A DNA stretch of 64,000 bases from an uncultured Methanosarcinales archaeon (GCA_964581515.1 CAZOOV010000007.1:12698-76697); one strand, 5' to 3'; counted from the stretch's first letter, positions 3,656 to 37,451 are shown. Translations and numbers: made by a program. Notes: generated by a model not told the origin, from the sequence alone.

Positions 3656-3829
3656 TCTTGCTATACTTCATCTGAATGTTCATCTGCAAGCTGTTCATGG
3701 GACGGCAGTTCTTGTTCATAAACAGGAATTTATTTTTTACTTAATTATTTTTTATTTAATTAAGAATTAGTTTTTATTCTCTTATTATTCTTTATTTATT
3801 ATTATTATATGACTTTTTTATTTCTTTTT

Positions 3830-6378: not shown

Positions 6379-6632
6379 TTAATTTCCCTGAGAAATGCCT
6401 TGAAATTTCCCTTCTTTTATAGTATCATCAAAACGGGTTTATTTATAAAGATTTCGTTCTGCTAAAGGCTGTTTTTCTCGTCGAGAAAAGAGAAAATCAA
6501 GATATGGTCATGATGAGCAATCCGCCTGAAAAATAGGGGATTTCCGGAAGCGTTTTTTCGACTGCAGGATATAGCAAAAATTATATAAACCTTCATCTAT
6601 GGGATTACTCACATAATACTATAACCTGCAAA

Positions 6633-7490
6633 ATGGCTAAAGAACATCTTATCAGTTTCATAGACAAACATCAAAAAAGAGGATACGACAGGAAAACACT
6701 TACTTCTATATTGCTTAAACATAAATATCCTTTGACAGAGATAAATGAAGCTTTTGATTCGTTATCGAATAATACATTATCGAATAATGCAGCTAATGGC
6801 TCTTCTTCAGATAGCCCAGCTAAAGTCGATGAAGTCCACAAACAGAACATTGCTTTGAAACATAAGAGCAAAAAGAACGTATTCAGGATACATCTTTTCA
6901 TACTGCTGTGCTTAATCCTTCTTCTTCTTGTTGTTCTGGGAGGCATAATTGTAAATATCAAAGGGAGAAATATAGATCTTGGAGCGGACCATGGACGGCA
7001 GGAGGAGATTCAAGATAAGAAGATTGCAGATAAGGCTGATGCCAAATCAATAGATAAGACAGCATCAAGATCTGACGAGAAAAATGATGATAATATGGCA
7101 TCTCTTGAGAGGCCAGATGCAAAGCCATCAATAATTTGTACTATGATACGTGTTGAAAGCCTTGCAAATAATTTTATGTCTGAATCAGAAAAACTACCTA
7201 TCAGGTGCTTCTTCAGCAATCTTGAAGGCTGCAATCCTGCATCTGTGACTGTGATAGATGGTGAAAGGATATCAGATGTATCAATCAAAGATGAGAAAAG
7301 AGGATACTGCATTCTGAGCATCAATGAATATACCAGCGTAAAAGGCTATACATGCAAGGTTCCAGATGATTTCTGGACCTTGAACAGTGTTGAAGATGAT
7401 ATCATGGCAGGTGCAGATGTCCTTAGGATGATATTAAGCACTCCTGAGGATGATGAACTTAAAGTATATGGCATAAGCTGTAAAATTTAA
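6633..7490 (+). CDS. Hypothetical single-pass membrane protein (tandem paralogue A)
   Basis: Conserved ~40-aa N-terminal domain (EHLISFIDKHQKRGYDRKTLTSILLKHKYPLTEINEAF), low-complexity linker, one TM helix (LFILLCLILLLLVVLGGIIV), Cys-containing C-terminal domain. Confidence 0.5.
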   Translation: MAKEHLISFIDKHQKRGYDRKTLTSILLKHKYPLTEINEAFDSLSNNTLSNNAANGSSSDSPAKVDEVHKQNIALKHKSKKNVFRIHLFILLCLILLLLVVLGGIIVNIKGRNIDLGADHGRQEEIQDKKIADKADAKSIDKTASRSDEKNDDNMASLERPDAKPSIICTMIRVESLANNFMSESEKLPIRCFFSNLEGCNPASVTVIDGERISDVSIKDEKRGYCILSINEYTSVKGYTCKVPDDFWTLNSVEDDIMAGADVLRMILSTPEDDELKVYGISCKI

Positions 7491-7569
7491 TCACTATTCT
7501 AAAATGATTACCAAAACTTATATAAGAAATTGCAGTTGATAGCATAATATAGCTATATAGAGGGATATA

Positions 7570-8565
7570 ATGGTACAAGAACATTTATTGGAATTTATCA
7601 GGAAGAATCTTAACGAGGGTTATGATAAACCTCGATTGACTGAAGTACTTCTAAAGCATGGATATGACCAAGCTGTAATTGATGAAGCCTTTACACAGGT
7701 TGAAGGAGGCACGCCTGCATCACAAGAACCTCAATCAGTCCCTGCTGATGCACAGCAACCAGCAGCTTCTACTGAACAACCTCAACAACAACCAGAACAA
7801 CAAGCACCTGTAGAAGCACAACAAGCATCTGCGGCACCTATTGCACAAGAGTCTGCTGCTCAAGATACCCAACAAGCTCAACAGAATACTGCTGAAGAAA
7901 AACCTAAGAAGAATATATCCAAGATAATCACTTTTGCACTATTAGGAGTTGTAGTAGTAGCAGTTCTTATACTGCTGGCAATGTGGATGATGCCTTCTGA
8001 AAGTGATCCTGATGAGATCATAACTCCTAAACTACCATTGCAACCTGATTCTGATGAGGAACAGGTTGTCAAAGATGATGATGCTGATACAGAACAGTTA
8101 TTATTATGCCCTTCGCTTGATTTAACTAAAAATATATCCCGGAATTCAGAAGGTTCTATATTGTGCTTCCTGAATGCCATTACGGATTGTAGGACAACAA
8201 ATCACACAATATTGGTCGAGAATAAATTACAGACTGTAATAGTGAATGGTTCAAACACTGGTTCAGGAGAAGAAGGCATTTGTCCTGTTGAAATAGAATC
8301 CAGAGCATGCATAATTGAGAATGTCATCCCTCTGACAGGCAACTCTAAGGCTGATGAGATCAGGCTTGATAATGAGAAGAAGAGGATGATGGCAAGTTGT
8401 GCGGTAAATAAGGCTGATTCCAGCACTATCTGTACAATAACATCATCAGAAGTCCAGGAAAATGGTACAGGGATAAGTCTTGTACAGAAGCATGTGGGAT
8501 TCATAGATGGACTGGCTAACCTGGAGTCAGGCCAATATACAAGCTATTCTATTGATTGTCCCTGA
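7570..8565 (+). CDS. Hypothetical single-pass membrane protein (tandem paralogue B)
   Basis: N-terminus EHLLEFIRKNLNEGYDKPRLTEVLLKHGYDQAVIDEAF aligns with paralogue A. Q/P/A-rich linker, TM helix (ITFALLGVVVVAVLILLAMWMM), Cys-containing ectodomain. Confidence 0.5.
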   Translation: MVQEHLLEFIRKNLNEGYDKPRLTEVLLKHGYDQAVIDEAFTQVEGGTPASQEPQSVPADAQQPAASTEQPQQQPEQQAPVEAQQASAAPIAQESAAQDTQQAQQNTAEEKPKKNISKIITFALLGVVVVAVLILLAMWMMPSESDPDEIITPKLPLQPDSDEEQVVKDDDADTEQLLLCPSLDLTKNISRNSEGSILCFLNAITDCRTTNHTILVENKLQTVIVNGSNTGSGEEGICPVEIESRACIIENVIPLTGNSKADEIRLDNEKKRMMASCAVNKADSSTICTITSSEVQENGTGISLVQKHVGFIDGLANLESGQYTSYSIDCP

Positions 8566-12976: not shown

Positions 12977-14056
12977 ATGCATAAGTCAGCAAAACCATTG
13001 ACAAAACTGCAAGAGTGGTGGATTGAGAAAAGACATTCTGATGAACTTGATTTAGTAGTTAAAGGATTAAATCAATCTTTTTTATGGGTAGTCACTACAA
13101 ATGTTTGTCAAGACAGTTGTGGTCATTGTTATGAAGAAACAGTCAAACCAAGTTCAGCAGATGCAAAATATATAGATCCAAATGTTGTTGTAAAGGCGGT
13201 AGAATTATTTCAGCCCCACAAAAGAAAGAATTTTGATTTTGAGCATAATCACGATGTTCAATTGACTGGAGGAGACGCTTTATCTCATCCTGGCATAGTT
13301 GAGATTGTAAGAGGAATAAAGAATATTGATGAAGATATCACCATCCACATAAGAACCAGTGGTTACCCATTGATTGGACATAAGAATGATGCAACAATAA
13401 AGGAATTAAAGGGGTTATTAACTAATACTGGTAATATAGGTGGTTCTGATGCAATCTCTCTACCTGAAAACCAAGATACATACCATGGACTTAGTGTTGA
13501 TTTACGATTAAAGCTGGCAAGAAAACTTAGAAATATAGGATTTAGAGGTTGTTATATCACACCTGATTCTGTATTAGATATCTTTGGCAGCAGTGATAAG
13601 GGATGGAAACCAAAAGCAATCGGAAGAGCAACGCAACTCGCTTCATCAGAAGTCTGTGAGCAAAGCTATGGATGCTGTAAAGTACACAAGATAGGTCAAG
13701 ATATATTAAGACAGGATGCTGTTAAGATTATTGAGGAGGGACTCCCTTTCTACGAGCATATGGGCAAATATCCAATGGCTCCTGCCAGGGAAGTTTGTTT
13801 AAGTTTGGATTATGGTGGTAATTTTAGATATTGCAATTATGCAAAACACAGTAGATTATTGCATTTTGATGATATTTGTGGGATGAATAAAGATGAAGCA
13901 ATACATAAGCTTGCATTGCAATATTTCAGGGTGAAACATCTACCTGATGATATGGGTGCTTTTTTTAAGAAGTATGATCCTAAGAATGAAGTTCCTGGAC
14001 CAGATAATTGTGCAAGATGTGTGCAAATAGTTAATAGTTTATTTTCTTCTAATTAA
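12977..14056 (+). CDS. Radical SAM domain protein, unknown function
   Basis: CQDSCGHC (Cx3Cx2C) plus TGGDALSHP (GGEP-like SAM motif). Divergent from hydB. Confidence 0.55.
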   Translation: MHKSAKPLTKLQEWWIEKRHSDELDLVVKGLNQSFLWVVTTNVCQDSCGHCYEETVKPSSADAKYIDPNVVVKAVELFQPHKRKNFDFEHNHDVQLTGGDALSHPGIVEIVRGIKNIDEDITIHIRTSGYPLIGHKNDATIKELKGLLTNTGNIGGSDAISLPENQDTYHGLSVDLRLKLARKLRNIGFRGCYITPDSVLDIFGSSDKGWKPKAIGRATQLASSEVCEQSYGCCKVHKIGQDILRQDAVKIIEEGLPFYEHMGKYPMAPAREVCLSLDYGGNFRYCNYAKHSRLLHFDDICGMNKDEAIHKLALQYFRVKHLPDDMGAFFKKYDPKNEVPGPDNCARCVQIVNSLFSSN

Positions 14057-18662: not shown

Positions 18663-19313
18663 ATGACAAGATTAAAGAAAAATATTCATCTCTTGAATAA
18701 GAAATGGACTGAAACAAAAGTTGATGATGAGATTACAAGAGGACTTGATCTTCTAAATAAGGTTGATTGTAAGATTGTAACAATACTAGGTTCTCATATT
18801 AGTGGGCCAAAGACTAAAGAATACAAGCATTGTGTTGATCTATGTAGTAAATTATCAAAGAAAGGATATGCTATCGTGACTGGGGGTGGTCCCGGTATAA
18901 TGGAAGCTGCAAACAAGGCAGCAGCAATGTCCGGAGGTCCTTCTGTTGGTATTAGAGCTGGTTTAATTAAGAATGAAAAAGTTGAGGGGTCCCCTTATAC
19001 TCATCTAGAATCATTTGACTTTCTGTTTGTCAGAAGATTCATATTATCAGTCAAGAGTGATGCATTAATATTTTATCCTGGTGCTTATGGTACATTTAAT
19101 GAGCTTTTTGAATATGTTGTCCTTGTGGCTACTGGTCTTGTAGATAAAGTACCATTAATATGTGTTGGAAAAACTTTTTGGCAAGGGCTATTTGATTGGA
19201 TGAAGAAACAGCCTGTGAAAAAAGGGATGTTTCCACATGGTGCAAAAGATCTTAAGATGATTCATGTAGTAGATAATGTTACTGAGATAGTTAAGATTAT
19301 AGAAGGAAAGTGA
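18663..19313 (+). CDS. LOG-family (TIGR00730) nucleotide phosphoribohydrolase-like protein
   Basis: TGGGPGIMEAANKAA and PGAYGTFNELFE motifs (PGGxGTxxE). Confidence 0.7.
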   Translation: MTRLKKNIHLLNKKWTETKVDDEITRGLDLLNKVDCKIVTILGSHISGPKTKEYKHCVDLCSKLSKKGYAIVTGGGPGIMEAANKAAAMSGGPSVGIRAGLIKNEKVEGSPYTHLESFDFLFVRRFILSVKSDALIFYPGAYGTFNELFEYVVLVATGLVDKVPLICVGKTFWQGLFDWMKKQPVKKGMFPHGAKDLKMIHVVDNVTEIVKIIEGK

Positions 19314-19345
19314 TTGTTTATTCTTGAGAAGCAAGTAATTAAAAA

Positions 19346-20185
19346 TTAATTATTTATTCTTTTAAGCAAATCTAATACATATTCTAAAGATGCATCGCCC
19401 ATCAATACGACATCATAAGCATTTGTATATTGTTCTATCATCAAAGGATCATCGTGATTTAAGAATCCAATCTTTATTATGCAATCATGTTCCATACCAT
19501 CTGCCATATTTAGGTCACCCATAGAATCTCCTAGAAGAATAACGTTCTTACGATTTTTGATCTCATCATGATATGGTGTTCCTTTTATGCTAATCTCATT
19601 CTTATTGAAAACATGTATTGCTCTTGATTTATATCCTATTACACTGCCTTCTTCATTGAAATTATAAAAGTTAGAGATTATATGGACATTCTTTGTTAGT
19701 TTACCTAGTGTCCTAAGATATTCATCTATAACATCACCTAGTCCTGCTGAGAAGATAAGGAAAGGCAGTTCATTATCCTTTATGAAGTCAATCATCTCAA
19801 ATAGAGAGTCTCTAGGATGAAAATCACCTTTGCGTGCAATTTCCATCAGAATGTCCTTGCTTAATTTGACCTCAACCATTAGTTCCATATGCTTATTCCA
19901 CCATTCTTCCATCTTCTTAATCTTTTCTTTAATAGGAATCGTAGGGTCTTTTTCAATAGGATAATATATGTCAAATAATTCATATGCTTTCTTTTTGTAC
20001 TCATCAGTGAGATATCCTCCATCTCTAATCTGAGCGAATGAAGAAACAGTCTTTCTGTCTTCTGTGTAAGCTTTTGTCAGAGTTTGATCGAAGTCCGCAA
20101 TAATATGAAGATTTCTTAGTCCGTCCTCTTTAAGCTTAGAAATTTTCTTCTTGAACTCTTCCTCATCTCTTATTTTTATCTCCAT
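19346..20185 (-). CDS. HAD-superfamily 5'-nucleotidase (cytosolic pyrimidine 5'-nucleotidase-like)
   Basis: IIADFDQTLTK (DFDxT motif I), later GDSMGD motif. Confidence 0.5.
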   Translation of the reverse strand: MEIKIRDEEEFKKKISKLKEDGLRNLHIIADFDQTLTKAYTEDRKTVSSFAQIRDGGYLTDEYKKKAYELFDIYYPIEKDPTIPIKEKIKKMEEWWNKHMELMVEVKLSKDILMEIARKGDFHPRDSLFEMIDFIKDNELPFLIFSAGLGDVIDEYLRTLGKLTKNVHIISNFYNFNEEGSVIGYKSRAIHVFNKNEISIKGTPYHDEIKNRKNVILLGDSMGDLNMADGMEHDCIIKIGFLNHDDPLMIEQYTNAYDVVLMGDASLEYVLDLLKRINN

Positions 20186-26838: not shown

Positions 26839-27162
26839 ATGGCAACATACAAGCAAAAATGTTACAAATGTAAGAAGAATTACGTGATAGTGGGCTATCG
26901 AAACAGATTCCCTGTTTGTTATGAATGCCAAAAGGAAGGTCTTAGTAAGGAAATTAAAGACCCAAAGATGAAAAAGTTTTTTAACATTCCAGAAGAGCTT
27001 TACAAAGATAGTTCATTCTTAAGAAGCATCAAGTTAAATTATCTTGAATATGAAAATCTGAGCGAAAGGCAGATTGAAGCGTTTAAGGAGACTGTCAAGA
27101 AGCTTAAGGCAAAGAAAAAAGAGCCAAAAGAAATTCCAATGCCTGACGAAACTGCTTATTGA
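26839..27162 (+). CDS. Small zinc-ribbon protein
   Basis: CYKCKKNY...CYECQKEG then K/E-rich tail. Confidence 0.45.
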   Translation: MATYKQKCYKCKKNYVIVGYRNRFPVCYECQKEGLSKEIKDPKMKKFFNIPEELYKDSSFLRSIKLNYLEYENLSERQIEAFKETVKKLKAKKKEPKEIPMPDETAY

Positions 27163-28492: not shown

Positions 28493-29491
28493 CTATTGAA
28501 GCTTTTTGAGGAGTTCTTGATGTATGAATTCAGGATAGCTTCTGTTTACATGCTCTTGGAATATCATCAAGAGCTCAAAAGAATTAAGCTTTTCTCCAAG
28601 CTTGTTCCTTAGTTCAAGAAGAGTTTTATGAAAATCTTTTGCATCTTCTGCTACAATCTCAAGAAGAATATTCCATTTCCCTATATTCTTGTCAGCGAAC
28701 CATACTTTCTTATTCATTGAGAATAATGTTGTTAAAGTGCTTTCAAATTTCTTATCTATTGGTTTTAATGATAAAAGAAGAGTATACCACGAATAATTTA
28801 ACTTGAATATATCGACCTGACATGAATAACCTTTGATTATACCTTTTGTTTCTAGTCTTTTTATCCTATATTTTATCGCTTCAGGCGTTAATTTTATCTT
28901 TTTTGATAGTTCAATCAATGAGATCCTACAATCCACACTTATCTCTTTTAATATTTCAAGGTCTTTATCTGTTGTTGTGACATTGTTGACATCAATATTG
29001 TCTGTTATCTTTTGATTCTTTTGATTTGCATAAAATAATTCAAAAGGATTTACTGATTTTAGTTTATTTGTTGACATTGTTACTTCATATGACTTTAAGT
29101 TGCTACCAAGTTTTTCTGTAATCTCATTGAAGATTAAATTGAACTGATCTCTATCTTTTGCATTTATCCTGATTGCAAGATCATATTTCCCAAAACAAGT
29201 AGATAACCATCTTATTGCAGAATTAGATCTGAGGAATGCGATTATTTCTTTTTGATTTGTCTCGTTAAAATTTTGCATGAGCAAGAATACATTATAAGGC
29301 CTGTATCCAAATCTTTCTACATCAATTACTGTAGTGAACTTTCTTATTATGCCTTGCTTGACAAGACGTTTAATCCTATATTCTACAACTTCTCTTGATA
29401 ATGCTACTTTTTTTGCTATTGTTGTTGATGGGAGTCTTCCATTCTTGCATAGTTCAGATAATATTTTCTTATCTTTAATATCTAGCTTCAT
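28493..29491 (-). CDS. Tandem (duplicated) Lrp/AsnC-family transcriptional regulator
   Basis: Two HTH_AsnC-like N-terminal segments (KDKKILSELCKNGRLPSTTIAKKVALSREVVEYRIKRLVKQGII and DLEILKEISVDCRISLIELSKKIKLTPEAIKYRIKRLETKGII), each followed by a RAM-like domain. Confidence 0.7.
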   Translation of the reverse strand: MKLDIKDKKILSELCKNGRLPSTTIAKKVALSREVVEYRIKRLVKQGIIRKFTTVIDVERFGYRPYNVFLLMQNFNETNQKEIIAFLRSNSAIRWLSTCFGKYDLAIRINAKDRDQFNLIFNEITEKLGSNLKSYEVTMSTNKLKSVNPFELFYANQKNQKITDNIDVNNVTTTDKDLEILKEISVDCRISLIELSKKIKLTPEAIKYRIKRLETKGIIKGYSCQVDIFKLNYSWYTLLLSLKPIDKKFESTLTTLFSMNKKVWFADKNIGKWNILLEIVAEDAKDFHKTLLELRNKLGEKLNSFELLMIFQEHVNRSYPEFIHQELLKKLQ

Positions 29492-29576
29492 ATTTACATA
29501 AAAGAGATATTTACTATAAATATTTTTCGTTTATGTAAAAGTATCTTAAAGATATTTTATATAACTCTAAGTCAAT

Positions 29577-30770
29577 ATGATATGTACAATGAAACCCTCA
29601 AAAAATGATTTAATTGAGAGAAGCGAAAGAGATGGAAGAAATAAAATAGTTGGAAGAGATGAAAGGAATGAAATTGATGAAATAAATGAAAGGGATGAAA
29701 AGAAACTTATCGCTGGTTGGTCTTTGACAAATATGTGCAATCTTAAATGCATGCACTGCTATAATGACTCAGGAAAAAGAAAAGACGATGAGCTGAGCAC
29801 AGAGGAAGCATTGCAAGTTGTTGATAAGCTTGCAGAAGCAAATGTTACTGCTGTTAATTTTGGTGGGGGCGAATGCGCTCTAAGGCCTGATTTTCTTGAT
29901 ATATGCAGAGCATTAGTTGAGAAAGGCATTGATATATCTTACACTACAAATGGAACTACTTTAGACAGAATTGAGAATGATTTAGATTTATTTCATGATG
30001 TAGGAGTAAGTATTGATTTTGCAGATTCTGGAAAGCATGATCTTTTCAGAGGGTGTGAAGGTACTTATGAGCAGGCAATTGAAGCTATTGATAAACTTGT
30101 TGCAAATGGAGTGAGCAATGAAATCGTAACATGCTTGACAAAACTAAATTCTAATGAAGAGGAGCTTTCTGGATTATATGATATTGTAAAAGAGCATAAC
30201 GTAGACTCATGGAGGCTTAATAGATATAGAGCAACAGGAAGGGCATTATATAATGATTCTTTTCTTGGTATGAACTCAAATCAATTAAAGCGTGCTTTTG
30301 ATTTTCTTGATTCGTTAAGAGATGATAAGACTTCAACTATCTCAGAGCCTTTGTTCAGAGCAATATATGGTGGTTCATATCAGATTGGAGGAGACCCCTC
30401 AGGACTTTATTCATTCAGGATACAGACCAATGGAGAGGTGACACCATCTGTCTTTTTGTCAAAGTCAGGGGGAAATATACGTGATAAATCTATTGATGAG
30501 ATAATGCAATCTGATGTCTTCAAAGACATAAGAGAGAGAGAAGCAGTTGGAAAATGTGTTGGATGTAATGAATACTACCATTGCCAAGGAGGAGACGCAG
30601 GTATCTCGCTGTTGATGAATGGACATTATAATGGGCCTGATCCTATGTGCTTCAAAGACACATCACTGCCTAAAAATAAGGATGTTATTAGACGAGTAAG
30701 TGAAGATCCAAATGTACATGAGCTATACTTATGTACACTCTATATTGCAGGAGGCAATCAACATGGCTGA
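29577..30770 (+). CDS. Radical SAM enzyme with C-terminal SPASM/twitch-like Cys cluster
   Basis: NMCNLKCMHC (Cx3Cx2C), FGGGECALRPD (GGEP-like), C-terminal CVGCNEYYHCQGG...C. N-terminal 45 aa R/E-rich repetitive. Confidence 0.75.
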   Translation: MICTMKPSKNDLIERSERDGRNKIVGRDERNEIDEINERDEKKLIAGWSLTNMCNLKCMHCYNDSGKRKDDELSTEEALQVVDKLAEANVTAVNFGGGECALRPDFLDICRALVEKGIDISYTTNGTTLDRIENDLDLFHDVGVSIDFADSGKHDLFRGCEGTYEQAIEAIDKLVANGVSNEIVTCLTKLNSNEEELSGLYDIVKEHNVDSWRLNRYRATGRALYNDSFLGMNSNQLKRAFDFLDSLRDDKTSTISEPLFRAIYGGSYQIGGDPSGLYSFRIQTNGEVTPSVFLSKSGGNIRDKSIDEIMQSDVFKDIREREAVGKCVGCNEYYHCQGGDAGISLLMNGHYNGPDPMCFKDTSLPKNKDVIRRVSEDPNVHELYLCTLYIAGGNQHG

Positions 30771-31848
30771 TGATAATAAGACGGTAGACAATAAGAAGAC
30801 AGCAGGCTTAGAAGATGTTACGAGAGGAGGGACAAAAGATAATGACAAAGGAAGGAAAGCACTTCCTAAACTAGACCTAAATATAACAAACAACTGCAAT
30901 TATAGGTGTGTGCATTGTGCTTTTGATTCTGGGCAGTGGGCTCTTCCTGAGCTTTCTCTTGAAGAACTCCGGAAGATACTTACCGATACAAGAGAATTAG
31001 GGGGAGAAAGGTTTGACATCACCGGTGGAGAGCCTCTTGTAAGAAAAGACGTAGGAGAAATAATAAGCATTGGAAAAGAATTAGGATACAAGATTGAACT
31101 TGTTACAAATGGTTCACTCCTGACTCTTGAGAAAATTGTTGATTTTAAGGCAAGAGGGCTTGATTCAATTGCAATGAGCATCGATGGTCCTGATTATGAG
31201 ACCTACAGTAGGATAAGGCTTGTTGATGAAGCAACTTATCAAAAGGTTATGAAGGCAGTTGATGATGTGCTTGATAATGATATTGCACTCAAGATAAATA
31301 CTGTTGCTTTTCAGTCAAACTACAAATCCATTCCTGAAATAACGAAATGGTGCATCGATAAAGGTGTTGCAGAACATGGCCTATATTATTATACTGCAAT
31401 TGGTAGAGGAGAAAGAAATAATGAACTTAGTGTGGATCCTAATGGATGGATTGATTTTGTAAGAAATGAATTGTATCCCTTGAGCGACAGGATGAAGATA
31501 TCATGTGAATTCCCTTTCATAGGTGATGATAAATTGCAGGACAAGGAAACAAGATGTCTTGCTGATGCTGAACAATACCACCTCCAGATACTTCCTGATG
31601 GAAATGTGTATCCCTGCGCAATAATGGCTTCATATCAATTGCCTATTGCAAATCTCCATGAAATTTCTGTTAAGGATATATGGAAAAATAAAGATATGTG
31701 GGATAATTATTGGACAAAAGCAAATGGAATATTTTGTGAGAATAAAGGATGCTGTGTTGATTTTAGTGATTCTTTTGACGTCGCAAAATATGATGATTGT
31801 AAGTTTGTCTGTCCACTTAGGAAATTCTATCCAGGTGATATAGTATGA
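30763..31848 (+). CDS. Radical SAM enzyme with C-terminal SPASM-like Cys cluster (paralogue)
   Basis: NNCNYRCVHC, TGGEPLVRKD, C-terminal CENKGCCVDF...CKFVCP. ATG overlaps upstream stop (ATGGCTGA, 8-nt overlap). Confidence 0.75.
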   Translation: MADDNKTVDNKKTAGLEDVTRGGTKDNDKGRKALPKLDLNITNNCNYRCVHCAFDSGQWALPELSLEELRKILTDTRELGGERFDITGGEPLVRKDVGEIISIGKELGYKIELVTNGSLLTLEKIVDFKARGLDSIAMSIDGPDYETYSRIRLVDEATYQKVMKAVDDVLDNDIALKINTVAFQSNYKSIPEITKWCIDKGVAEHGLYYYTAIGRGERNNELSVDPNGWIDFVRNELYPLSDRMKISCEFPFIGDDKLQDKETRCLADAEQYHLQILPDGNVYPCAIMASYQLPIANLHEISVKDIWKNKDMWDNYWTKANGIFCENKGCCVDFSDSFDVAKYDDCKFVCPLRKFYPGDIV

Positions 31849-32546
31849 ATTATCCTGGTAATAAGCAAGGCAGGCATCCTTTGATTGTATTCGAAGGGCT
31901 TGATTGTACTGGCAAGACTAGCATTGCTACAAGAGTAGCTGAGATGTTAAGTGATGATAAGGATAATAAAAATGATGAGAGTGATAAAAGAGAAGTAATG
32001 TATAATAAAACAAGACAAAGAATATCGAAGAAATTTCCAGTAGGTTTAGCATATCTAACAGATGAGTTAATCAATGATTATCTTGTTATGAGGCCTAATT
32101 TGAATCATAGATCTGTTATTCAAGATAGATCTTTTTTCTCTACACTCACATATAATGCAGCAATAACAGGTAGTAAGGTGTTAAGAGCTTCAAAATATTT
32201 GTTTACAAAACCAAATCTTGTTGTTTATCTTACAGCGAGTGATGAAGTTAGAGCTGATAGAAGTGTAGAGAGAGGAAGACAAGGGTTTACTAGGATATTT
32301 GATGACCTTGAGCTTGCACATAGGGTAGAAGAGGAGTATAAAGAGATGTTAAGTGATTATAATCATATTATTGTTGATACTAGTAAATTGAGATTAGATG
32401 AAAGTATTGAAATTGTACAGGAGAAAGTAGAGGATTATTTGAGCAATTATCAAAGCAATCGATTAAAATTTTTTACTCTTAATTTTAACTCTTTTTCAGT
32501 AGATACGCATACGAATTTTTATAAATTACAGGAGGATTTGATCTAA
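31845..32546 (+). CDS. P-loop kinase, thymidylate/deoxynucleoside kinase-like
   Basis: Walker A FEGLDCTGKTS, LTASDEVRADRSVERGRQG lid-like region. 4-nt overlap with upstream gene. Confidence 0.55.
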   Translation: MNYPGNKQGRHPLIVFEGLDCTGKTSIATRVAEMLSDDKDNKNDESDKREVMYNKTRQRISKKFPVGLAYLTDELINDYLVMRPNLNHRSVIQDRSFFSTLTYNAAITGSKVLRASKYLFTKPNLVVYLTASDEVRADRSVERGRQGFTRIFDDLELAHRVEEEYKEMLSDYNHIIVDTSKLRLDESIEIVQEKVEDYLSNYQSNRLKFFTLNFNSFSVDTHTNFYKLQEDLI

Positions 32547-32547
32547 G

Positions 32548-34308
32548 ATGACAAAAGAATTAATAGTGGGTTTTCCAGTAAATGAGTTTTCATTATGTGA
32601 TAAATTATTTGGCAAGCCGTATTTCTTCAATCAAAATGGTGGGCTTGAAGAATGGGCAAAATCTATGGAAGGAGGATTTCTTGAACAGCATTTCCAGACA
32701 GTCAGTGAGATAAACAGAATACTTGATTCACCTGAAAGATTATCTGAATTCAAGGCAAAGATTGACGAATATAGGGAGAATGCACTCGAAGTCACTATGC
32801 ACGCACCTTTTCTTAAGGCACATTCAGATGATCCTGATAAACAGAGTTTTCTTGGTTTTGATTTTGAATGGTTAGTTGCGCCTGTAGAGTATAAGGATAA
32901 ACCCATTAAAGATTTTTATGTAGGAGAGAACAGCCATAAGAAACATATCCAGATAGGTTGTCTCGAAGCAAAGATAGAAGATATGAAAAGAACAATTGAT
33001 CTTGCTTCTGTTGCTGGCATAGAGATGCTTACAGTGCATGTTGCTGTTCCAGGAATATTTCTCAATGATAATGATTTTCAGAGGTATACTGATAAGATAT
33101 GCGAGCTTGCTGATTATATCCGGGATGGTGATAAAAATGTCCAGCTTGCTGTAGAGACAGGTGGTGTTAGAGTTAGTCAGATGCGTAAGCTTTACAAGGA
33201 TACAAAAGAAAGAACAGGTTATGAAATTGCATATAATTTAGACACTGCACACATGCTACTAGATACTATGGAATCTGCCAAGATACGGTTAAAAGAAACT
33301 ATGAGTCCAGAAGATGGGCAAAAAAAAGTAGAAGCTATGATTCCGCGTATCAATAAGTTTGTCAATGCATTTTATGAACGAGAAAAGGATAAGATTGAAG
33401 TTGTCCATTTGACTCAGACTGGTCTTTGGGCTGACCTTCATATGGGGATAGAAGATGATCTTGGAATATTGACATGTAATGAAGGAGTCATAAAGGCTGC
33501 TAATGAAGAATTTGTAGAGAAAGGAGTTAAGAGATATCTTATGATTGAGTCTCAACCATCAAATGAAGGAGTACTACATTTCATTAAAGCAAAAGCAGGA
33601 GAGATTAGTGATGCTCGAAGGCAAGGAAATGATTATACTTTATCTGTATTCATGGGCAGACCATGCAACGGCAAATCACAAGCTCTTGACATCTTAAGGG
33701 ATAATGGGTATTTTACAGAAGATGCAAGCATCATAAGATCAGATGTACTTAGGGAGAAATATGCAGTAGAGGCATTCTCTGTCAATGAATGGGTTCCAAG
33801 AGAGAGAAGACAAATTGTCTATAATGAAGGTTTTAGAAGAGCTGGTCTTAGCATGATGCTCAAAAGAGGAACAGTGTTTGATGCTACTTTTGATATGAGA
33901 GACAATAGAGAGAAACTTTATGGTCTTGCAGTTGAGAATGGAATCAAAGATGTGTACATGCTTGATTTTTATTGTGAACCTGGAGAAGCTATTGAAAGAA
34001 TAAAAAGTAGAGATCAAACTCTACTACTGGAAGAAGCAAATGGAAATAATCCTGAAGGACATTTATGTATGAGAAATCCACAAAAGTATGGGCGCTTTGA
34101 GATGGAATTTGAAGATATGGATCATGAAGCAGAAGCACAATCATTACAAGGTGTTGAGCTCCACACCATATGTATAGATACTTCAAGCAATGCTAGAAAA
34201 ATAACAATATCCAATCCAGACCAAAGGTCAATGATGATGGCAAAGATTCTTGCTGGTGAATATAAGAAAATGTATAAAGCAGATTATTCTGTTGAGCAAG
34301 TCATGTAA
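32548..34308 (+). CDS. Fusion protein: N-terminal ~330-aa domain (tentatively sugar-phosphate isomerase/epimerase-like TIM barrel) plus C-terminal P-loop kinase (AAA_33/zeta-like)
   Basis: C-terminal Walker A GRPCNGKSQ. N-terminal NLDTAH/HAPF-type motifs. Starts 1 nt after upstream stop. Confidence 0.5.
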   Translation: MTKELIVGFPVNEFSLCDKLFGKPYFFNQNGGLEEWAKSMEGGFLEQHFQTVSEINRILDSPERLSEFKAKIDEYRENALEVTMHAPFLKAHSDDPDKQSFLGFDFEWLVAPVEYKDKPIKDFYVGENSHKKHIQIGCLEAKIEDMKRTIDLASVAGIEMLTVHVAVPGIFLNDNDFQRYTDKICELADYIRDGDKNVQLAVETGGVRVSQMRKLYKDTKERTGYEIAYNLDTAHMLLDTMESAKIRLKETMSPEDGQKKVEAMIPRINKFVNAFYEREKDKIEVVHLTQTGLWADLHMGIEDDLGILTCNEGVIKAANEEFVEKGVKRYLMIESQPSNEGVLHFIKAKAGEISDARRQGNDYTLSVFMGRPCNGKSQALDILRDNGYFTEDASIIRSDVLREKYAVEAFSVNEWVPRERRQIVYNEGFRRAGLSMMLKRGTVFDATFDMRDNREKLYGLAVENGIKDVYMLDFYCEPGEAIERIKSRDQTLLLEEANGNNPEGHLCMRNPQKYGRFEMEFEDMDHEAEAQSLQGVELHTICIDTSSNARKITISNPDQRSMMMAKILAGEYKKMYKADYSVEQVM

Positions 34309-34381
34309 CAATATAATAAACACCATCCATGTAGTTATAATAAGCAAAAAATACATAAATGGTACGACTTGTTTCTTTTTT

Positions 34382-35395
34382 ATGAATAAAGTATTAATTG
34401 CAGAACAGATCGATAAAATACTGGAGAACATAGACATTAACAGGCTGGGCAATAATGTCGGCATAAAGGTGCATTTTGGAGAGAAAGGATGCAACACTTA
34501 CATTGACCCTGCTCTTGTTAAGGCAGCATATGATAAGGTTGTTTCTTTAGGTAAGAAATGCACACTGATTGAGACAAATGTCCTGTATAGAGGGAGCAGG
34601 ACAAATACTACTGATCATCTAAAGACAGCAAAGTCTCATGGATTTGATTTTGCACCTATTGATATTCTTGATGGAGAGATGGGGGATGAGTTTATAGAAG
34701 TCAAACTAGATAAAGGACTCGCTAATCCTGTTAAGATTGCGAAAGGAGTAGAGAAATATGATTCTATGATTGTACTGACACATTTCAAAGGTCACATTGC
34801 AGCAGGTTATGGTGGTGCTTTCAAAAATATAGGTATGGGTATGGGTTCACGTGCAGGAAAACTGCACATGCATTCTAATGTAAGTCCTGTAATTAACAAA
34901 GAACCTTGTACTGGTTGTGGTATTTGTGTGAAAAATTGTGATTTTGATGCAATTACTATCATTGATGGAAAAGCAGAAATCAATCCTGATAAATGTGTAG
35001 GGTGCGCTATGTGCATAGCAGTATGTCCTGTTCAGGCACCTCAAGTTCCTTGGATGGGCTCTACACATGAAGAATTACAAAAGAAAATTGTCGATTATGC
35101 ACGAGGAGTTATTGAGACTATTGGGAAAGATAAAATAGTTTATATTAATGTTATGAAAACAATAACACCTGAATGTGATTGCATGGGTATTGAGCAAGAA
35201 CCTATGATGGATGATGTAGGAGTTCTTATGGGTGATGACCCTGTTGCTATTGATAAAGCATGTCTTGATCTGGCTGAAGAAAAATCTGCAGGTAAATTTG
35301 ATAAGGTTAATTCTATTGATAAGAGTGTGCAGGTTGAATATGCATGCGAGAAAGGATTGGGTTCTAAGGAATATGAATTGGTTAAGTTAGATTAG
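34382..35395 (+). CDS. DUF362-like protein with embedded 2x[4Fe-4S] ferredoxin domain
   Basis: CTGCGICVKNCDFDA...CVGCAMCIAVCP. Start at MNKVLIAEQ chosen to avoid overlap with upstream gene. Confidence 0.55.
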   Translation: MNKVLIAEQIDKILENIDINRLGNNVGIKVHFGEKGCNTYIDPALVKAAYDKVVSLGKKCTLIETNVLYRGSRTNTTDHLKTAKSHGFDFAPIDILDGEMGDEFIEVKLDKGLANPVKIAKGVEKYDSMIVLTHFKGHIAAGYGGAFKNIGMGMGSRAGKLHMHSNVSPVINKEPCTGCGICVKNCDFDAITIIDGKAEINPDKCVGCAMCIAVCPVQAPQVPWMGSTHEELQKKIVDYARGVIETIGKDKIVYINVMKTITPECDCMGIEQEPMMDDVGVLMGDDPVAIDKACLDLAEEKSAGKFDKVNSIDKSVQVEYACEKGLGSKEYELVKLD

Positions 35396-35409: not shown

Positions 35410-36450
35410 TTAGTTTGTGTTGGTTCTGGTTGCTATTATATTATGGCTTGGACAATTGTAAAAACCAGGTCCATTCATATAGAGGTTCTCGAAAATTCTT
35501 GCTTGAAATCCATTCTTTTCAAGATGGTCCTTTTGTGCTAGTGCAAATAAAAGTTTTAGTGTGTTTGCAAAATATCTTTCTGAAGGTTTTTGAGTATCAT
35601 ATTTCTGATTCATGAGGTCTGCTACACTACTATCTGGATCATAGATGAGATCAATTACTTTTGATGTTTCTGCCTCAGACATATGTGATGAAAGAAAGTT
35701 TCTCATGAGTCCATATGCTCGAGAATCAGGTTTTATCATTTCTAATGCTGAATTGTTGAAGTAAACTTTTTCTGCTTCTAGTTCAATTGCTAATTGTGCA
35801 GTTATATTACCAAGTCCAATAGGATTTCTCATACCCATCATAAATACTCTTTTTCCTTGTGTATCTATTGGTAGGGTGTAAGAATCGAGAGATAATTTAC
35901 TGTGAACATATCTTACATTATGATATCCATTTACTTGTAATAGTTTATTGAAAGTTGCCTGTGCATCATCTGTTATTGGAACTTTCACTTTGAATTCTTC
36001 GCCGGCAATATCATTTCTAGGAAATACTTTGTAGAGCTCTGCTTTTTCAAGCTCAGCTCTGCCATATTTATCCACCATTACAACCTGTAAGTTTGGTTTT
36101 GCTCTAGCTAAAGGTCTTGTAAGCCTTCTACCCATCCCAGAACCAATATCAATCAGCATACAATCTTCACTGTCTGGTATATCTTTTAATGGAGTCTTCT
36201 CAAAATCCTTATTGAACATATCAGGCAATTCAATATGATTATAATCATTCTCATAAACTTCTTCACCAAGTAGTTCTGGTTGGAAATGATTAGGGTCAGC
36301 CCTATACCAAGGGTAAGATTGAGCTAGAGGAGTCATAAAACCAGCTTGATCTTCTGCTCTGAAATCAGGAGCTTTTCCTGGTTCATCAAGATGACCATAT
36401 TTCTTTAGGAATCTTACTGCTCGTTCTGTCAATTGAGTTAAGTTTAACAT
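35410..36450 (-). CDS. Class I SAM-dependent methyltransferase-like protein
   Basis: IDIGSGMGRRL (GxGxG) and VVMVDKY motifs. Confidence 0.5.
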   Translation of the reverse strand: MLNLTQLTERAVRFLKKYGHLDEPGKAPDFRAEDQAGFMTPLAQSYPWYRADPNHFQPELLGEEVYENDYNHIELPDMFNKDFEKTPLKDIPDSEDCMLIDIGSGMGRRLTRPLARAKPNLQVVMVDKYGRAELEKAELYKVFPRNDIAGEEFKVKVPITDDAQATFNKLLQVNGYHNVRYVHSKLSLDSYTLPIDTQGKRVFMMGMRNPIGLGNITAQLAIELEAEKVYFNNSALEMIKPDSRAYGLMRNFLSSHMSEAETSKVIDLIYDPDSSVADLMNQKYDTQKPSERYFANTLKLLFALAQKDHLEKNGFQARIFENLYMNGPGFYNCPSHNIIATRTNTN

Positions 36451-36561: not shown

Positions 36562-37011
36562 TCATTCTTCGAATTTGATATCAGGTACTGCATATCTAAG
36601 GATAATATTTACACCAATTCTTTTGATATATTTAGCTTTAATAGTATAAGATTTACCTAAAGAATGCTTTTTTACTATTATCGCTATGAGTTTATTATCT
36701 GGATATTCTTCTACATCTGACACAATCCCTACACTCTTGCCGTGTTTATCAAATACTTCCATGCCTTTTAATTTAGGGTGTGGTGATTGATTCAGAAAGA
36801 CAGAGTCAATACCAAAATTGCTGATTAAGTCAAGACCAATGAAGAGATCTGCTTTCATAAAGCCTTGATCAACAAGTATACCAAGAATTCTTTTTGTCTT
36901 CTTGTCTATCTTCAACTGCTGGACAATCCCTATCCTATCCCCATCAATATCGACGACGTCTTTTCCAAGTATATCATCAGAAGTTATAACTTCTTTTTCT
37001 TTGCTTATCAT
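36562..37011 (-). CDS. PRC-barrel domain protein (tandem)
   Basis: Two G[KR]x[VI]xxxxGxxIGxV-like segments (LGKDVVDIDGDRIGIV, VFDKHGKSVGIV). Confidence 0.4.
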   Translation of the reverse strand: MISKEKEVITSDDILGKDVVDIDGDRIGIVQQLKIDKKTKRILGILVDQGFMKADLFIGLDLISNFGIDSVFLNQSPHPKLKGMEVFDKHGKSVGIVSDVEEYPDNKLIAIIVKKHSLGKSYTIKAKYIKRIGVNIILRYAVPDIKFEE

Positions 37012-37451
37012 TTTTGAATTACTTTGTTAAGAATTATATTCTTTCCAATAATTCCAATATCTGACTTTGGAATTGTCCTTGAAGGTGTAAAAAGATTTTT
37101 CTTGACAAGAAGACTCTCAAAGTCATTAAGATGTGTGTTTCTTGTTATTCTTTTGACTTTTCCAAGTTTCTTTCCATCCTTATCAAAAACATCTCTTCTT
37201 AATAATGTAGTGATTGGATTTATCTTAAGGATGATTGAATCAGAATTGAACTCATCTATGTAAGAACGATCTATCAACATTTTTTTAGTCTTAAAGATAC
37301 CCCATACATATATACCCATTATGTTATTTGCATCAAAAGCTATGTCTTTTACTCTACCTATTATCTCTCCATTCTCGCAGATTACTTTCTTGCCAATTAT
37401 TGCTTTAAGGCTGAAGTCTGTCTTCAGTTGTCTTGCGCTTATTACTTCCAT
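37008..37451 (-). CDS. PRC-barrel domain protein (tandem)
   Basis: IGKKVICENGEIIGRV and VFDKDGKKLGKV. 4-nt overlap with downstream paralogue. Confidence 0.4.
   Translation of the reverse strand: MEVISARQLKTDFSLKAIIGKKVICENGEIIGRVKDIAFDANNIMGIYVWGIFKTKKMLIDRSYIDEFNSDSIILKINPITTLLRRDVFDKDGKKLGKVKRITRNTHLNDFESLLVKKNLFTPSRTIPKSDIGIIGKNIILNKVIQK

Follow-up and report, generated by a model that had tools for sequence, protein, structure and literature searches.

What does an archaeon make with two radical S-adenosylmethionine (SAM) enzymes and nucleotide-type kinases that are encoded side by side under a regulator of their own? The question is raised by a 64,000-nucleotide stretch of archaeal DNA (GCA_964581515.1 CAZOOV010000007.1:12698-76697; this whole stretch is called the window below), in which a reading made from the sequence alone had proposed that five co-directional genes at 29577-35395 form one undescribed biosynthetic or modification operon. 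The five genes encode two radical SAM enzymes (rSAM1 and rSAM2), a P-loop kinase, a fusion protein with a second kinase domain (FUS) and a DUF362 protein with an inserted ferredoxin. Comparison with related loci revealed a different unit: the first three genes, together with the divergently transcribed tandem Lrp-type regulator LrpT, are very probably the window's copy of a conserved operon, to which FUS has been appended and beside which the DUF362 gene is a neighbour. We found neither a name for this operon nor a description of it in the searchable full-text literature.

The window holds a derived copy of a conserved operon

A metagenome profile scan, contig look-ups, tblastn and clustering of open reading frames (ORFs) yielded 57 non-redundant loci. 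Each feature was counted only in those loci where it could be assessed, and denominators therefore differ. When contigs were scanned with the full-length rSAM1 alignment, generic radical SAM motifs dominated, with four true orthologues among the matches listed; a scan with the alignment of the rSAM1 C-terminus returned 56 specific metagenome loci. The rSAM2 gene lies 3' of rSAM1 in 36 of 37 assessable loci, a thymidylate kinase (TMPK)-like gene lies 3' of rSAM2 in 32 of 37, and LrpT is found divergently upstream in 25 of 29. A gene for an HD-domain protein of ~190 residues stands immediately 5' of rSAM1, often overlapping it (30/38). The usual order is LrpT, transcribed away from the rest, and then HD phosphodiesterase, rSAM1, in some loci a homologue of cyclodipeptide synthases (CDPSs), rSAM2 and the TMPK-family kinase.

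These counts define LrpT/HD/rSAM1/rSAM2/kinase as the canonical form, and the operon in the window is therefore a derived variant, in which the HD gene is absent and FUS is appended after the kinase. Conservation of the gene linkage was one of two points on which the sequence-only reading had staked its proposal, and the linkage of LrpT, rSAM1, rSAM2 and kinase is indeed kept in dozens of loci. The five genes as one conserved operon did not hold up: the DUF362 gene occurs in 1 of the 57 loci, and FUS in 3 of 25 (the window, L005 and L007).

Homologues of rSAM1 fall into more than 120 clusters at 49-74% identity, and those with a named source are almost all labelled DPANN. Judged by its gene content, the window itself reads as DNA of an anaerobic DPANN-type archaeon. 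Genes for ribosomal protein S3Ae, for pyruvate:ferredoxin oxidoreductase and for a subunit of a NiFe hydrogenase lie in it as well, and the proteins closest to rSAM1, FUS and DUF362 carry the labels Woese-, Pace- or Nanoarchaeota. On a complete-looking 1.56-Mb Woesearchaeota contig (L009) the operon lies among the genes for EF-2, EF-1alpha, S10 and NDK; two tandem-Lrp paralogues are encoded nearby (2689-3663 and 6884-7894). A bacterial version carries a 550-residue HD-rSAM1 fusion (L010, 4360-6012; L011, 647-2299) next to genes for EF-P, DnaN, HU and FtsH, with a divergent TrmB regulator and a metallo-beta-lactamase (MBL) gene nearby.

Genes for membrane transporters recur at the flanks of the operon. 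One of the MFS family is convergent with LrpT in L005, L142 and L144, and a TctA-like protein is encoded close by in four or five loci (L001, L109/L117, L136 and the P0012 contig). One candidate locus (L014, labelled 'bacterium', rSAM1 38% identity) was set aside as a different cluster with four radical SAM genes.

The radical SAM pair fits no curated equivalog

Both cluster motifs named in the sequence-only reading were found (Table 1), and Pfam recovered the families that it had listed (Radical_SAM, SPASM, Thymidylate_kin, AAA_33 and DUF362). For Radical_SAM (PF04055), rSAM1 and rSAM2 score 85.7 and 89.4 bits (cut-off 29.5), and for SPASM (PF13186) 29.2 and 33.4 bits (cut-off 21.5), which places both in the SPASM/twitch subgroup. 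The GGE-type SAM motif is invariant in both families, and Pfam found no B12-binding domain in either enzyme. The C-terminal cysteine arrays that had been described are present but degenerate. Outside CX3CX2C, only C265, C285, C331 and C350 are conserved in the rSAM2 family; five C-terminal cysteines are conserved in the rSAM1 family, most members of which have GDPSG instead of the GCxCG of divergent members, Asp340 replacing the fourth cysteine of CX2CX5CX3C. The seven-cysteine SPASM motif CX9-15GX4C...CX2CX5CX3C...C, which stands for two auxiliary clusters, is thus incomplete in both families, and each enzyme likely binds a single auxiliary cluster.

Both proteins match dozens of SPASM-type equivalogs of NCBIfam, MoaA included, all at scores two to six times under the cut-off. 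For rSAM1 these are AhbD at 125.8 bits (cut-off 500), AhbC at 101.8 (650), NirJ at 126.8 (515) and NirJ2 at 145.8 (500), and rSAM2 scores below rSAM1 on the AhbC, AhbD and NirJ models. Other equivalog scores are 155.9 for MftC (265), 123.5 for PqqE (381) and 170.6 for GeoRSP (400). The earlier statement that no recognised pathway fits is therefore borne out, and a clear assignment to AhbC or AhbD, which that reading had named as decisive against it, is not seen for either enzyme. The next-nearest relatives, at ~30% identity, come from methanogens, Bathyarchaeota and Campylobacterota, where the partner genes are absent; one radical SAM homologue bears the automatic Joint Genome Institute (JGI) name 'Fe-coproporphyrin III synthase'.

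Comparison across loci revealed no conserved small precursor ORF in or around the operon, in agreement with what had been noticed in the window, and no gene for PqqD, a PqqD-like protein or a RiPP recognition element (RRE; RiPP, ribosomally synthesized and post-translationally modified peptide) is among the recurrent neighbour families. In typical members of the radical SAM families the cluster motif begins ~15 residues from the N-terminus, which leaves no room for an N-terminal recognition domain. With neither this domain nor a conserved small ORF, a classical RiPP system is unlikely.

A TMPK-family kinase and a phosphoesterase slot of variable fold

On sequence grounds, the kinase of the operon is a member of the thymidylate kinase family, as its earlier description as a dTMP/deoxynucleoside-kinase-like P-loop protein had it. 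It matches Thymidylate_kin (PF02223) at 54.6 bits (cut-off 27), its matches in the PDB are thymidylate kinases only, and its profile aligns with Escherichia coli Tmk at an hhalign probability of 98.5%. The EGxDxxGKT P-loop, the QDR motif and the RxxR lid are kept in 32 kinase homologues. Missing are counterparts of the Tmk TREPGGT loop, Arg78 and Gln109, which bind dTMP in the E. coli enzyme; the aligned positions read Y-x-K-G. A dTMP kinase proper was rejected on the absence of these residues and on a score of 58.8 bits for the dTMP kinase equivalog TIGR00041, under its cut-off of 83.25.

In the HD protein of the canonical operon, the signature of class-I phosphodiesterases (YHNxxHAxDV...HD...D) is present. 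Relatives of known structure are small HD hydrolases, among them 5dqv, the nucleoside triphosphate (NTP) pyrophosphohydrolase YpgQ, and also cyclic-nucleotide phosphodiesterases. At the HD position, L122 and L123 encode an MBL instead, and the MBLs match RNase Z, PhnP and cyclic-nucleotide phosphodiesterase models. In L005 the HD and TMPK-like genes are both missing and FUS is present. Because HD is found fused to rSAM1, because an MBL can stand at its position and because FUS occurs where HD is missing, the function of this slot appears to be conserved while its fold varies, with HD in most loci, MBL in some and an endonuclease IV (Endo IV)-like domain in the window.

FUS matches AP_endonuc_2 (37.3 bits, cut-off 31.1) and AAA_33 (38.0 bits) in Pfam and has no match in NCBIfam. 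The TIM barrel and the AAA_33-like kinase of the sequence-only reading thus stand, but the barrel had tentatively been taken for a sugar-phosphate isomerase or epimerase, and on its xylose-isomerase-like fold it has nine of nine ligands of an Endo IV-type trinuclear metal site (H, H, E, D, H, H, D, H, E), which point to a phosphoesterase. Its similarity to the endonuclease Nfo is marginal: a full alignment made by local hhalign at a low maximum-accuracy (MAC) threshold has a probability of 42%, the only Pfam match (AP_endonuc_2) is at superfamily level, and FUS has insertions at residues ~95-135 and ~240-283. The kinase domain is nearest to 6-phosphofructo-2-kinase and to kinases of the PNK/PSTK type (AAA_33/6PF2K/PNK-like).

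FUS is also rare. A word-indexed search found 7 homologues among 5.8 billion proteins, and when 1.84 billion cluster representatives were searched exhaustively, 41 matches came up, ~20 of them full length. FUS occurs without the radical SAM genes as well, beside LrpT, MBL, an adenosine-deaminase-family gene or a nucleotidyltransferase. We interpret FUS as a non-orthologous stand-in for the HD phosphoesterase, with a kinase of its own. Immediately 3' of FUS in L005, on a DPANN-like contig, lies a bona fide QueA gene (6502-7479; 412.7 bits, cut-off 324); to our knowledge, QueA is not expected in archaea.

LrpT is a regulator with a predicted operator in the shared promoter region

Pfam HTH_24 and an HTH_AsnC-type domain each match LrpT twice, and AsnC_trans_reg matches it weakly. 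Against the PDB, the family profile scores 77.8 bits for FL11/PH1519 and 76.9 for LrpA, and 24.6 for the siroheme decarboxylase NirDL (4ch7). In NCBIfam, LysM and LrpA reach ~78 bits, compared with 34.8 for AhbA (cut-off 140) and 30.5 for AhbB (cut-off 125). A siroheme decarboxylase of the AhbA/AhbB/NirDL type was rejected, since LrpT is nearer to DNA-binding Lrp regulators in both the models and the PDB. A TrmB-type regulator stands in for LrpT in the bacterial version of the operon.

The LrpT-rSAM1 intergenic region contains an inverted repeat, TTTACATAAA (29493-29502) and TTTATGTAAA (29530-29539), and a TATA-like element, TTATATAA, at 29557-29564; on the LrpT side there is a CGAAA resembling a TFB recognition element (BRE), besides TATA-like boxes. 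A near-identical intergenic sequence that includes the repeat occurs in the window (29492-29588), L005 (2542-2635) and L001 (8852-8941), and we infer that the repeat is the operator of LrpT. The L001 copy stands 5' of MBL and FUS genes, not of radical SAM genes. As the three loci share this LrpT-proximal sequence, one type of regulator would control either module, the radical SAM genes or MBL-FUS. The dedicated Lrp-type regulator of the sequence-only reading thereby gains support, with LrpT as the usual divergent partner and a conserved palindrome in the shared promoter.

Layout of the locus and its surroundings

All five ORFs lie on the + strand with the spacing that had been described. rSAM1 and rSAM2 overlap by 8 nucleotides (nt; rSAM1 TGA at 30768-30770, rSAM2 ATG at 30763), rSAM2 and the kinase by 4 nt in an ATGA (rSAM2 stop at 31846-31848, kinase ATG at 31845), and the kinase and FUS are separated by 1 nt (kinase stop at 32544-32546, FUS ATG at 32548). 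At each of these junctions a GGAGG or GGTGAT motif precedes the downstream start by 7-12 nt. The tight translational coupling claimed for the whole set therefore applies from rSAM1 to FUS but not to DUF362, which follows FUS after a gap of 73 nt. Translation of rSAM1 likely starts at 29589, because an identical database protein (P0008) has 393 residues. The window's copy has a 40-residue, low-complexity N-terminal extension rich in Arg, Glu, Asp and Asn (29577-29700), which homologues lack, and its residues 1-36 have an AlphaFold 2 (AF2) pLDDT below 50. The most likely start of DUF362, the ATG at 34382, fits homologues of 330-340 residues.

Table 1. Features of the locus in the window (positions counted from its first nucleotide) and related loci that encode a CDPS homologue.
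Feature	Position or loci	Strand	Description
LrpT	28493-29491	-	tandem regulator of the Lrp/AsnC type, 332 aa, with two HTH + RAM modules; divergent from operon
Divergent promoter/operator region	29492-29588		inverted repeat (predicted operator) and TATA-like element
rSAM1	29589-30770	+	radical SAM enzyme; CNLKCMHC; SPASM-derived C-terminal domain; ORF opens at 29577
rSAM2	30763-31848	+	paralogue of rSAM1; CNYRCVHC; four conserved extra Cys
Thymidylate-kinase-family P-loop kinase	31845-32546	+	altered acceptor site
FUS	32548-34308	+	586 aa; endonuclease-IV-like TIM barrel (aa ~1-350) and P-loop kinase (aa ~360-586)
DUF362 protein with inserted 2x[4Fe-4S] ferredoxin	34382-35395	+	adjacent gene
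CDPS homologues	L096, L099, L100, L107/L130, L141, L146, L148		between rSAM1 and rSAM2

Two more genes of nucleotide salvage lie ~10 kb upstream of the operon (18663-20185), one for a LOG/SLOG-family protein (Lysine_decarbox, 79.5 bits) and its opposite-strand neighbour for a eukaryote-type pyrimidine 5'-nucleotidase, UMPH-1 (262.7 bits). Convergent with DUF362 is the gene of a 346-residue protein (35410-36450, - strand) that has no Pfam, NCBIfam or PADLOC match. Also encoded are a 107-residue protein with paired CxxC motifs and no Pfam family (26839-27162, + strand), two overlapping double PRC-barrel paralogues of 149 and 147 residues (36562-37451, - strand) and a further radical SAM protein of 359 residues that is not related to the operon (12977-14056). 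Scans of the window for tRNAs and Rfam families gave no matches.

Possible functions of the operon

That the operon serves a small-molecule pathway, of neither the RiPP nor the tetrapyrrole type, we consider quite probable. Our more specific reading is tentative, and we would give it somewhat less than an even chance: the operon may tailor a phosphate-bearing small molecule, a nucleotide or nucleotide-linked compound. This reading draws on the TMPK-family kinase, the phosphodiesterase- or YpgQ-like HD protein, the RNase Z- or PhnP-like MBLs and the Endo IV-type site, and also on the nucleotide-metabolism neighbours of FUS and on two precedents. Prokaryotic viperin (pVip) with its associated nucleotide kinase is a precedent for a radical SAM enzyme paired with a kinase, and OxsA (HD) and OxsB (radical SAM) act on deoxyadenosine phosphates in the case of oxetanocin A. 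The nearest solved sequences of rSAM2 are BlsE (51 bits), PqqE (50) and MoaA (41), and the presence of BlsE, which acts on nucleosides, among the closest radical SAM structures counts in favour of a nucleotide as well. The nucleotide-type substrate of the sequence-only reading thus remains plausible.

In such a pathway the TMPK-family kinase, and the FUS kinase where present, would set the phosphorylation state of the substrate or product. The two radical SAM enzymes, each with a SAM-cleaving [4Fe-4S] cluster and apparently one auxiliary cluster, would act in sequence, each abstracting hydrogen by means of a 5'-deoxyadenosyl radical. The phosphoesterase would cleave a phosphodiester or phosphoanhydride, either releasing or activating the product or preparing the substrate, and LrpT would sense a pathway metabolite and control both divergent promoters through the conserved palindrome. 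Electrons would come from a general ferredoxin, without a dedicated partner; the window has a pyruvate:ferredoxin oxidoreductase gene.

Several findings weigh against this reading. None of the operon's enzymes is specific to a particular nucleotide, the kinase lacks the dTMP-binding residues of true TMPKs, and structure comparison did not separate peptide-using from nucleoside-using relatives of the radical SAM enzymes. Their best curated models are peptide-modifying (GeoRSP and MftC for rSAM1, PqqE for rSAM2), and among PDB sequences rSAM1 matches the peptide maturase SkfB best (96.7 bits; all others 45 or less). Lrp-type regulators usually sense amino acids. Finally, a gene for a protein of 262-289 residues lies between rSAM1 and rSAM2 in 7 of the 57 loci, and its product, the CDPS homologue, would argue for a scaffold derived from aminoacyl-tRNA.

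This homologue is central to the best of the alternatives, a cyclodipeptide pathway, which we regard as a close rival, though less likely than not. Here the CDPS homologue of the ancestral operon would make the scaffold, a cyclodipeptide or another dipeptide unit derived from aminoacyl-tRNA, and rSAM1 and rSAM2 would be anaerobic tailoring enzymes that carry out C-C or C-S cross-linking or dehydrogenation, a role that falls to P450s or oxidases when CDPS clusters are aerobic. A phosphate handle would be added by the kinase and removed by the phosphoesterase for activation or self-protection, and genomes that lack the CDPS gene, that of the window included, would obtain the scaffold from outside. 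The Pfam CDPS model matches 5 of 5 proteins tested at 16.6-26.6 bits, just under its cut-off of 27, and the top eight PDB matches of the family profile are all cyclodipeptide synthases (E-values of 5e-7 to 0.05). Ser48, at the position of the nucleophile, and one Tyr are invariant, and an Asp aligns with Glu182 of AlbC. The gene is always found between rSAM1 and rSAM2, the homologues are 24-35% identical to one another, and the loci that bear them are spread over five or more distinct positions in the rSAM1 tree, one of which is the sister group to the clade of the window. This scatter and divergence suggest that the CDPS homologue is an old member of the operon that has been lost repeatedly. 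The peptide cross-linkers among the best radical SAM matches, the Lrp-type regulator and the MFS or TctA transporters that flank several loci would fit a cyclodipeptide too. A 2014 review (PMC4159871), which states that no archaeal CDPS was known at the time, counts radical SAM enzymes among the genes with a putative tailoring role in CDPS clusters.

The non-RiPP product of the sequence-only reading is affected in part: no conserved precursor ORF emerged, but the CDPS homologues reopen an amino-acid-derived, non-ribosomal substrate. Set against a cyclodipeptide, no CDPS homologue is encoded in 50 of the 57 loci or anywhere in the 64-kb window, and loci with FUS, LrpT and MBL operate without either radical SAM enzyme. 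Moreover, neither TMPK-family kinases nor HD proteins of the phosphodiesterase type are known to us to act on diketopiperazines.

The nucleotide and cyclodipeptide lines of evidence would be reconciled by a hybrid, in which a unit derived from aminoacyl-tRNA and a nucleotide handle are reworked by the two radical SAM enzymes into an aminoacyl- or cyclodipeptide-nucleotide metabolite. This proposal is speculative, and we give it a small chance. Were it true, it would describe an anaerobic, so far undescribed pathway of DPANN archaea and some ultra-small bacteria whose product might serve as a cofactor, as a signal or as an effector aimed at the host, and FUS would be a new single-chain phosphodiesterase-kinase for small molecules, not DNA.

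A module for the end-healing or modification of tRNA or other RNA seems distinctly improbable. The phosphoesterase would then clear 2',3'-cyclic or 3'-phosphate ends, the kinase would phosphorylate 5'-OH ends and the radical SAM enzymes would add a modification, protective or functional. The Endo IV-type ligands of FUS, the RNase Z model matches of the MBLs, the aminoacyl-tRNA that a CDPS homologue would bind and the QueA gene adjoining FUS in L005 are all consistent with such a module. However, the canonical kinase belongs to TMPK, a family of small-molecule nucleoside monophosphate kinases, the best fold match of the FUS kinase domain is 6-phosphofructo-2-kinase, no conserved ligase, RNA-binding protein or methyltransferase is among the recurrent neighbours, and QueA adjoins FUS in one locus only.

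The five-gene version of the sequence-only reading, with the DUF362-ferredoxin protein as the dedicated electron donor of both radical SAM enzymes, is also a long way from probable. Radical SAM enzymes need a low-potential reductant, and the DUF362 gene, co-oriented and 73 nt downstream, encodes a protein (DUF362, 149 bits, residues 26-296) with two [4Fe-4S] (Fer4) motifs inserted at ~169-220. Yet the gene is absent from the other 56 loci, and more than 3254 homologues of its product occur across DPANN and the candidate phyla radiation (CPR), and the gene of the closest one (69% identity) is a solitary one among unrelated neighbours. In addition, the gap that separates it from the FUS stop is A/T-rich and contains a TATA-like sequence. 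The DUF362 gene is probably an independent transcription unit outside the system, and we treat its adjacency as coincidental or, at most, a local recruitment.

A viperin-like antiviral system, in which the kinase would supply an NTP and the radical SAM enzymes would make a chain terminator of it, is very unlikely. PADLOC models of pVips match both enzymes (83.6 and 93.1 bits), VakA matches the kinase (39 bits), and the NCBIfam model of prokaryotic viperin gives 67.8 and 82 bits for the two enzymes. These last scores, however, are far under the cut-off of 180, and the match is limited to the generic radical SAM core (profile positions 2-174 of 262). Viperins are not known to have a SPASM-type C-terminal domain, whereas both radical SAM enzymes of the operon have one. 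The operon's regulator is of a metabolic, Lrp type, its genomic setting in L009 is one of housekeeping genes, and scans of viral contigs with rSAM1 and with FUS gave no match.

We give scarcely any credence to a haem or haem d1-type pathway, with LrpT as a fused AhbAB or NirDL and the radical SAM enzymes as AhbC/AhbD or NirJ relatives, or to a RiPP system, both of which are largely refuted: a tandem Lrp-fold protein with two SPASM enzymes mimics ahbAB-ahbC-ahbD, NirJ2, AhbD, NirJ and AhbC are among the NCBIfam matches, and the distant relatives and the JGI name noted above point the same way, but the Ahb and NirJ scores are three to six times under their cut-offs, LrpT scores higher on true regulators than on AhbA, AhbB or NirDL and is replaced by TrmB in bacteria, the relatives lack the partner genes, we know of no role for the kinase and HD protein in haem pathways, and the RiPP system fails on the absence of a conserved precursor ORF, a recurrent PqqD/RRE neighbour and an N-terminal recognition domain.

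Significance and comparison with known systems

Minimal DPANN and CPR genomes keep this operon in dozens of lineages, complete with its own regulator and two oxygen-sensitive Fe-S enzymes, and it therefore likely matters to a symbiotic, scavenging lifestyle. Its characterisation would yield a new radical SAM reaction pair and probably a new metabolite, derived from a nucleotide or dipeptide, of symbionts that are uncultivated. It would also give a natural example of one pathway slot in which three phosphoesterase folds, unrelated to one another, take each other's place, and put on record CDPS homologues of DPANN archaea that seem to be undescribed. The present assignments correct the misleading automatic names 'Fe-coproporphyrin III synthase', 'mycofactocin maturase' and 'dTMP kinase'.

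Among described systems, the pVips resemble the operon in that a radical SAM enzyme is encoded beside a P-loop kinase of the TMPK/CMPK type, and the cores are similar (PADLOC 84-93 bits, VakA 39). The operon differs in its two radical SAM enzymes with SPASM-derived domains and no viperin C-terminal nucleotide-binding extension, in its additional phosphodiesterase and Lrp regulator, and in its housekeeping context. OxsA and OxsB likewise combine an HD phosphohydrolase with a radical SAM enzyme, a kind of partnership also seen in the HD-rSAM1 fusion of L010. However, OxsB is B12-dependent, and no B12 domain was detected in the operon's enzymes; the HD protein of the operon has a class-I phosphodiesterase/YpgQ-like signature, and a kinase and a second radical SAM enzyme are added.

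CDPS clusters, of which the mycocyclosin cluster with the CDPS Rv2275 and CYP121 is an example, share with 7 of the 57 operon loci a CDPS-family enzyme amid oxidative tailoring enzymes. The operon would tailor by radical SAM chemistry instead of a P450 or flavin oxidase, its CDPS homologue is very divergent and mostly absent, and CDPS clusters are not known to contain a counterpart to its kinase and phosphodiesterase. Among curated models and PDB entries, rSAM1 and rSAM2 match PqqE, MftC and SkfB best, along their whole length and with the SPASM region included, but the scores are two to three times under the equivalog cut-offs, and neither a PqqA/MftA-type precursor nor a PqqD/MftB partner accompanies the operon.

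For FUS, sequence similarity to Endo IV (Nfo) is marginal and two large insertions are present, and the phosphatases of the end-healing enzyme Pnkp, a kinase plus phosphatase, have a different phosphoesterase fold; the genetic linkage of FUS is with a metabolic regulator and radical SAM genes, not with repair genes. With AhbA/B-AhbC-AhbD and NirDL-NirJ the operon shares a superficial gene pattern and a broad radical SAM subgroup, and it falls outside them in every membership test run. The enzyme superfamilies are thus familiar, and what appears to be new is their combination, the interchangeable phosphoesterases, the fusion of an Endo IV-like domain to a kinase and the CDPS homologues of DPANN archaea.

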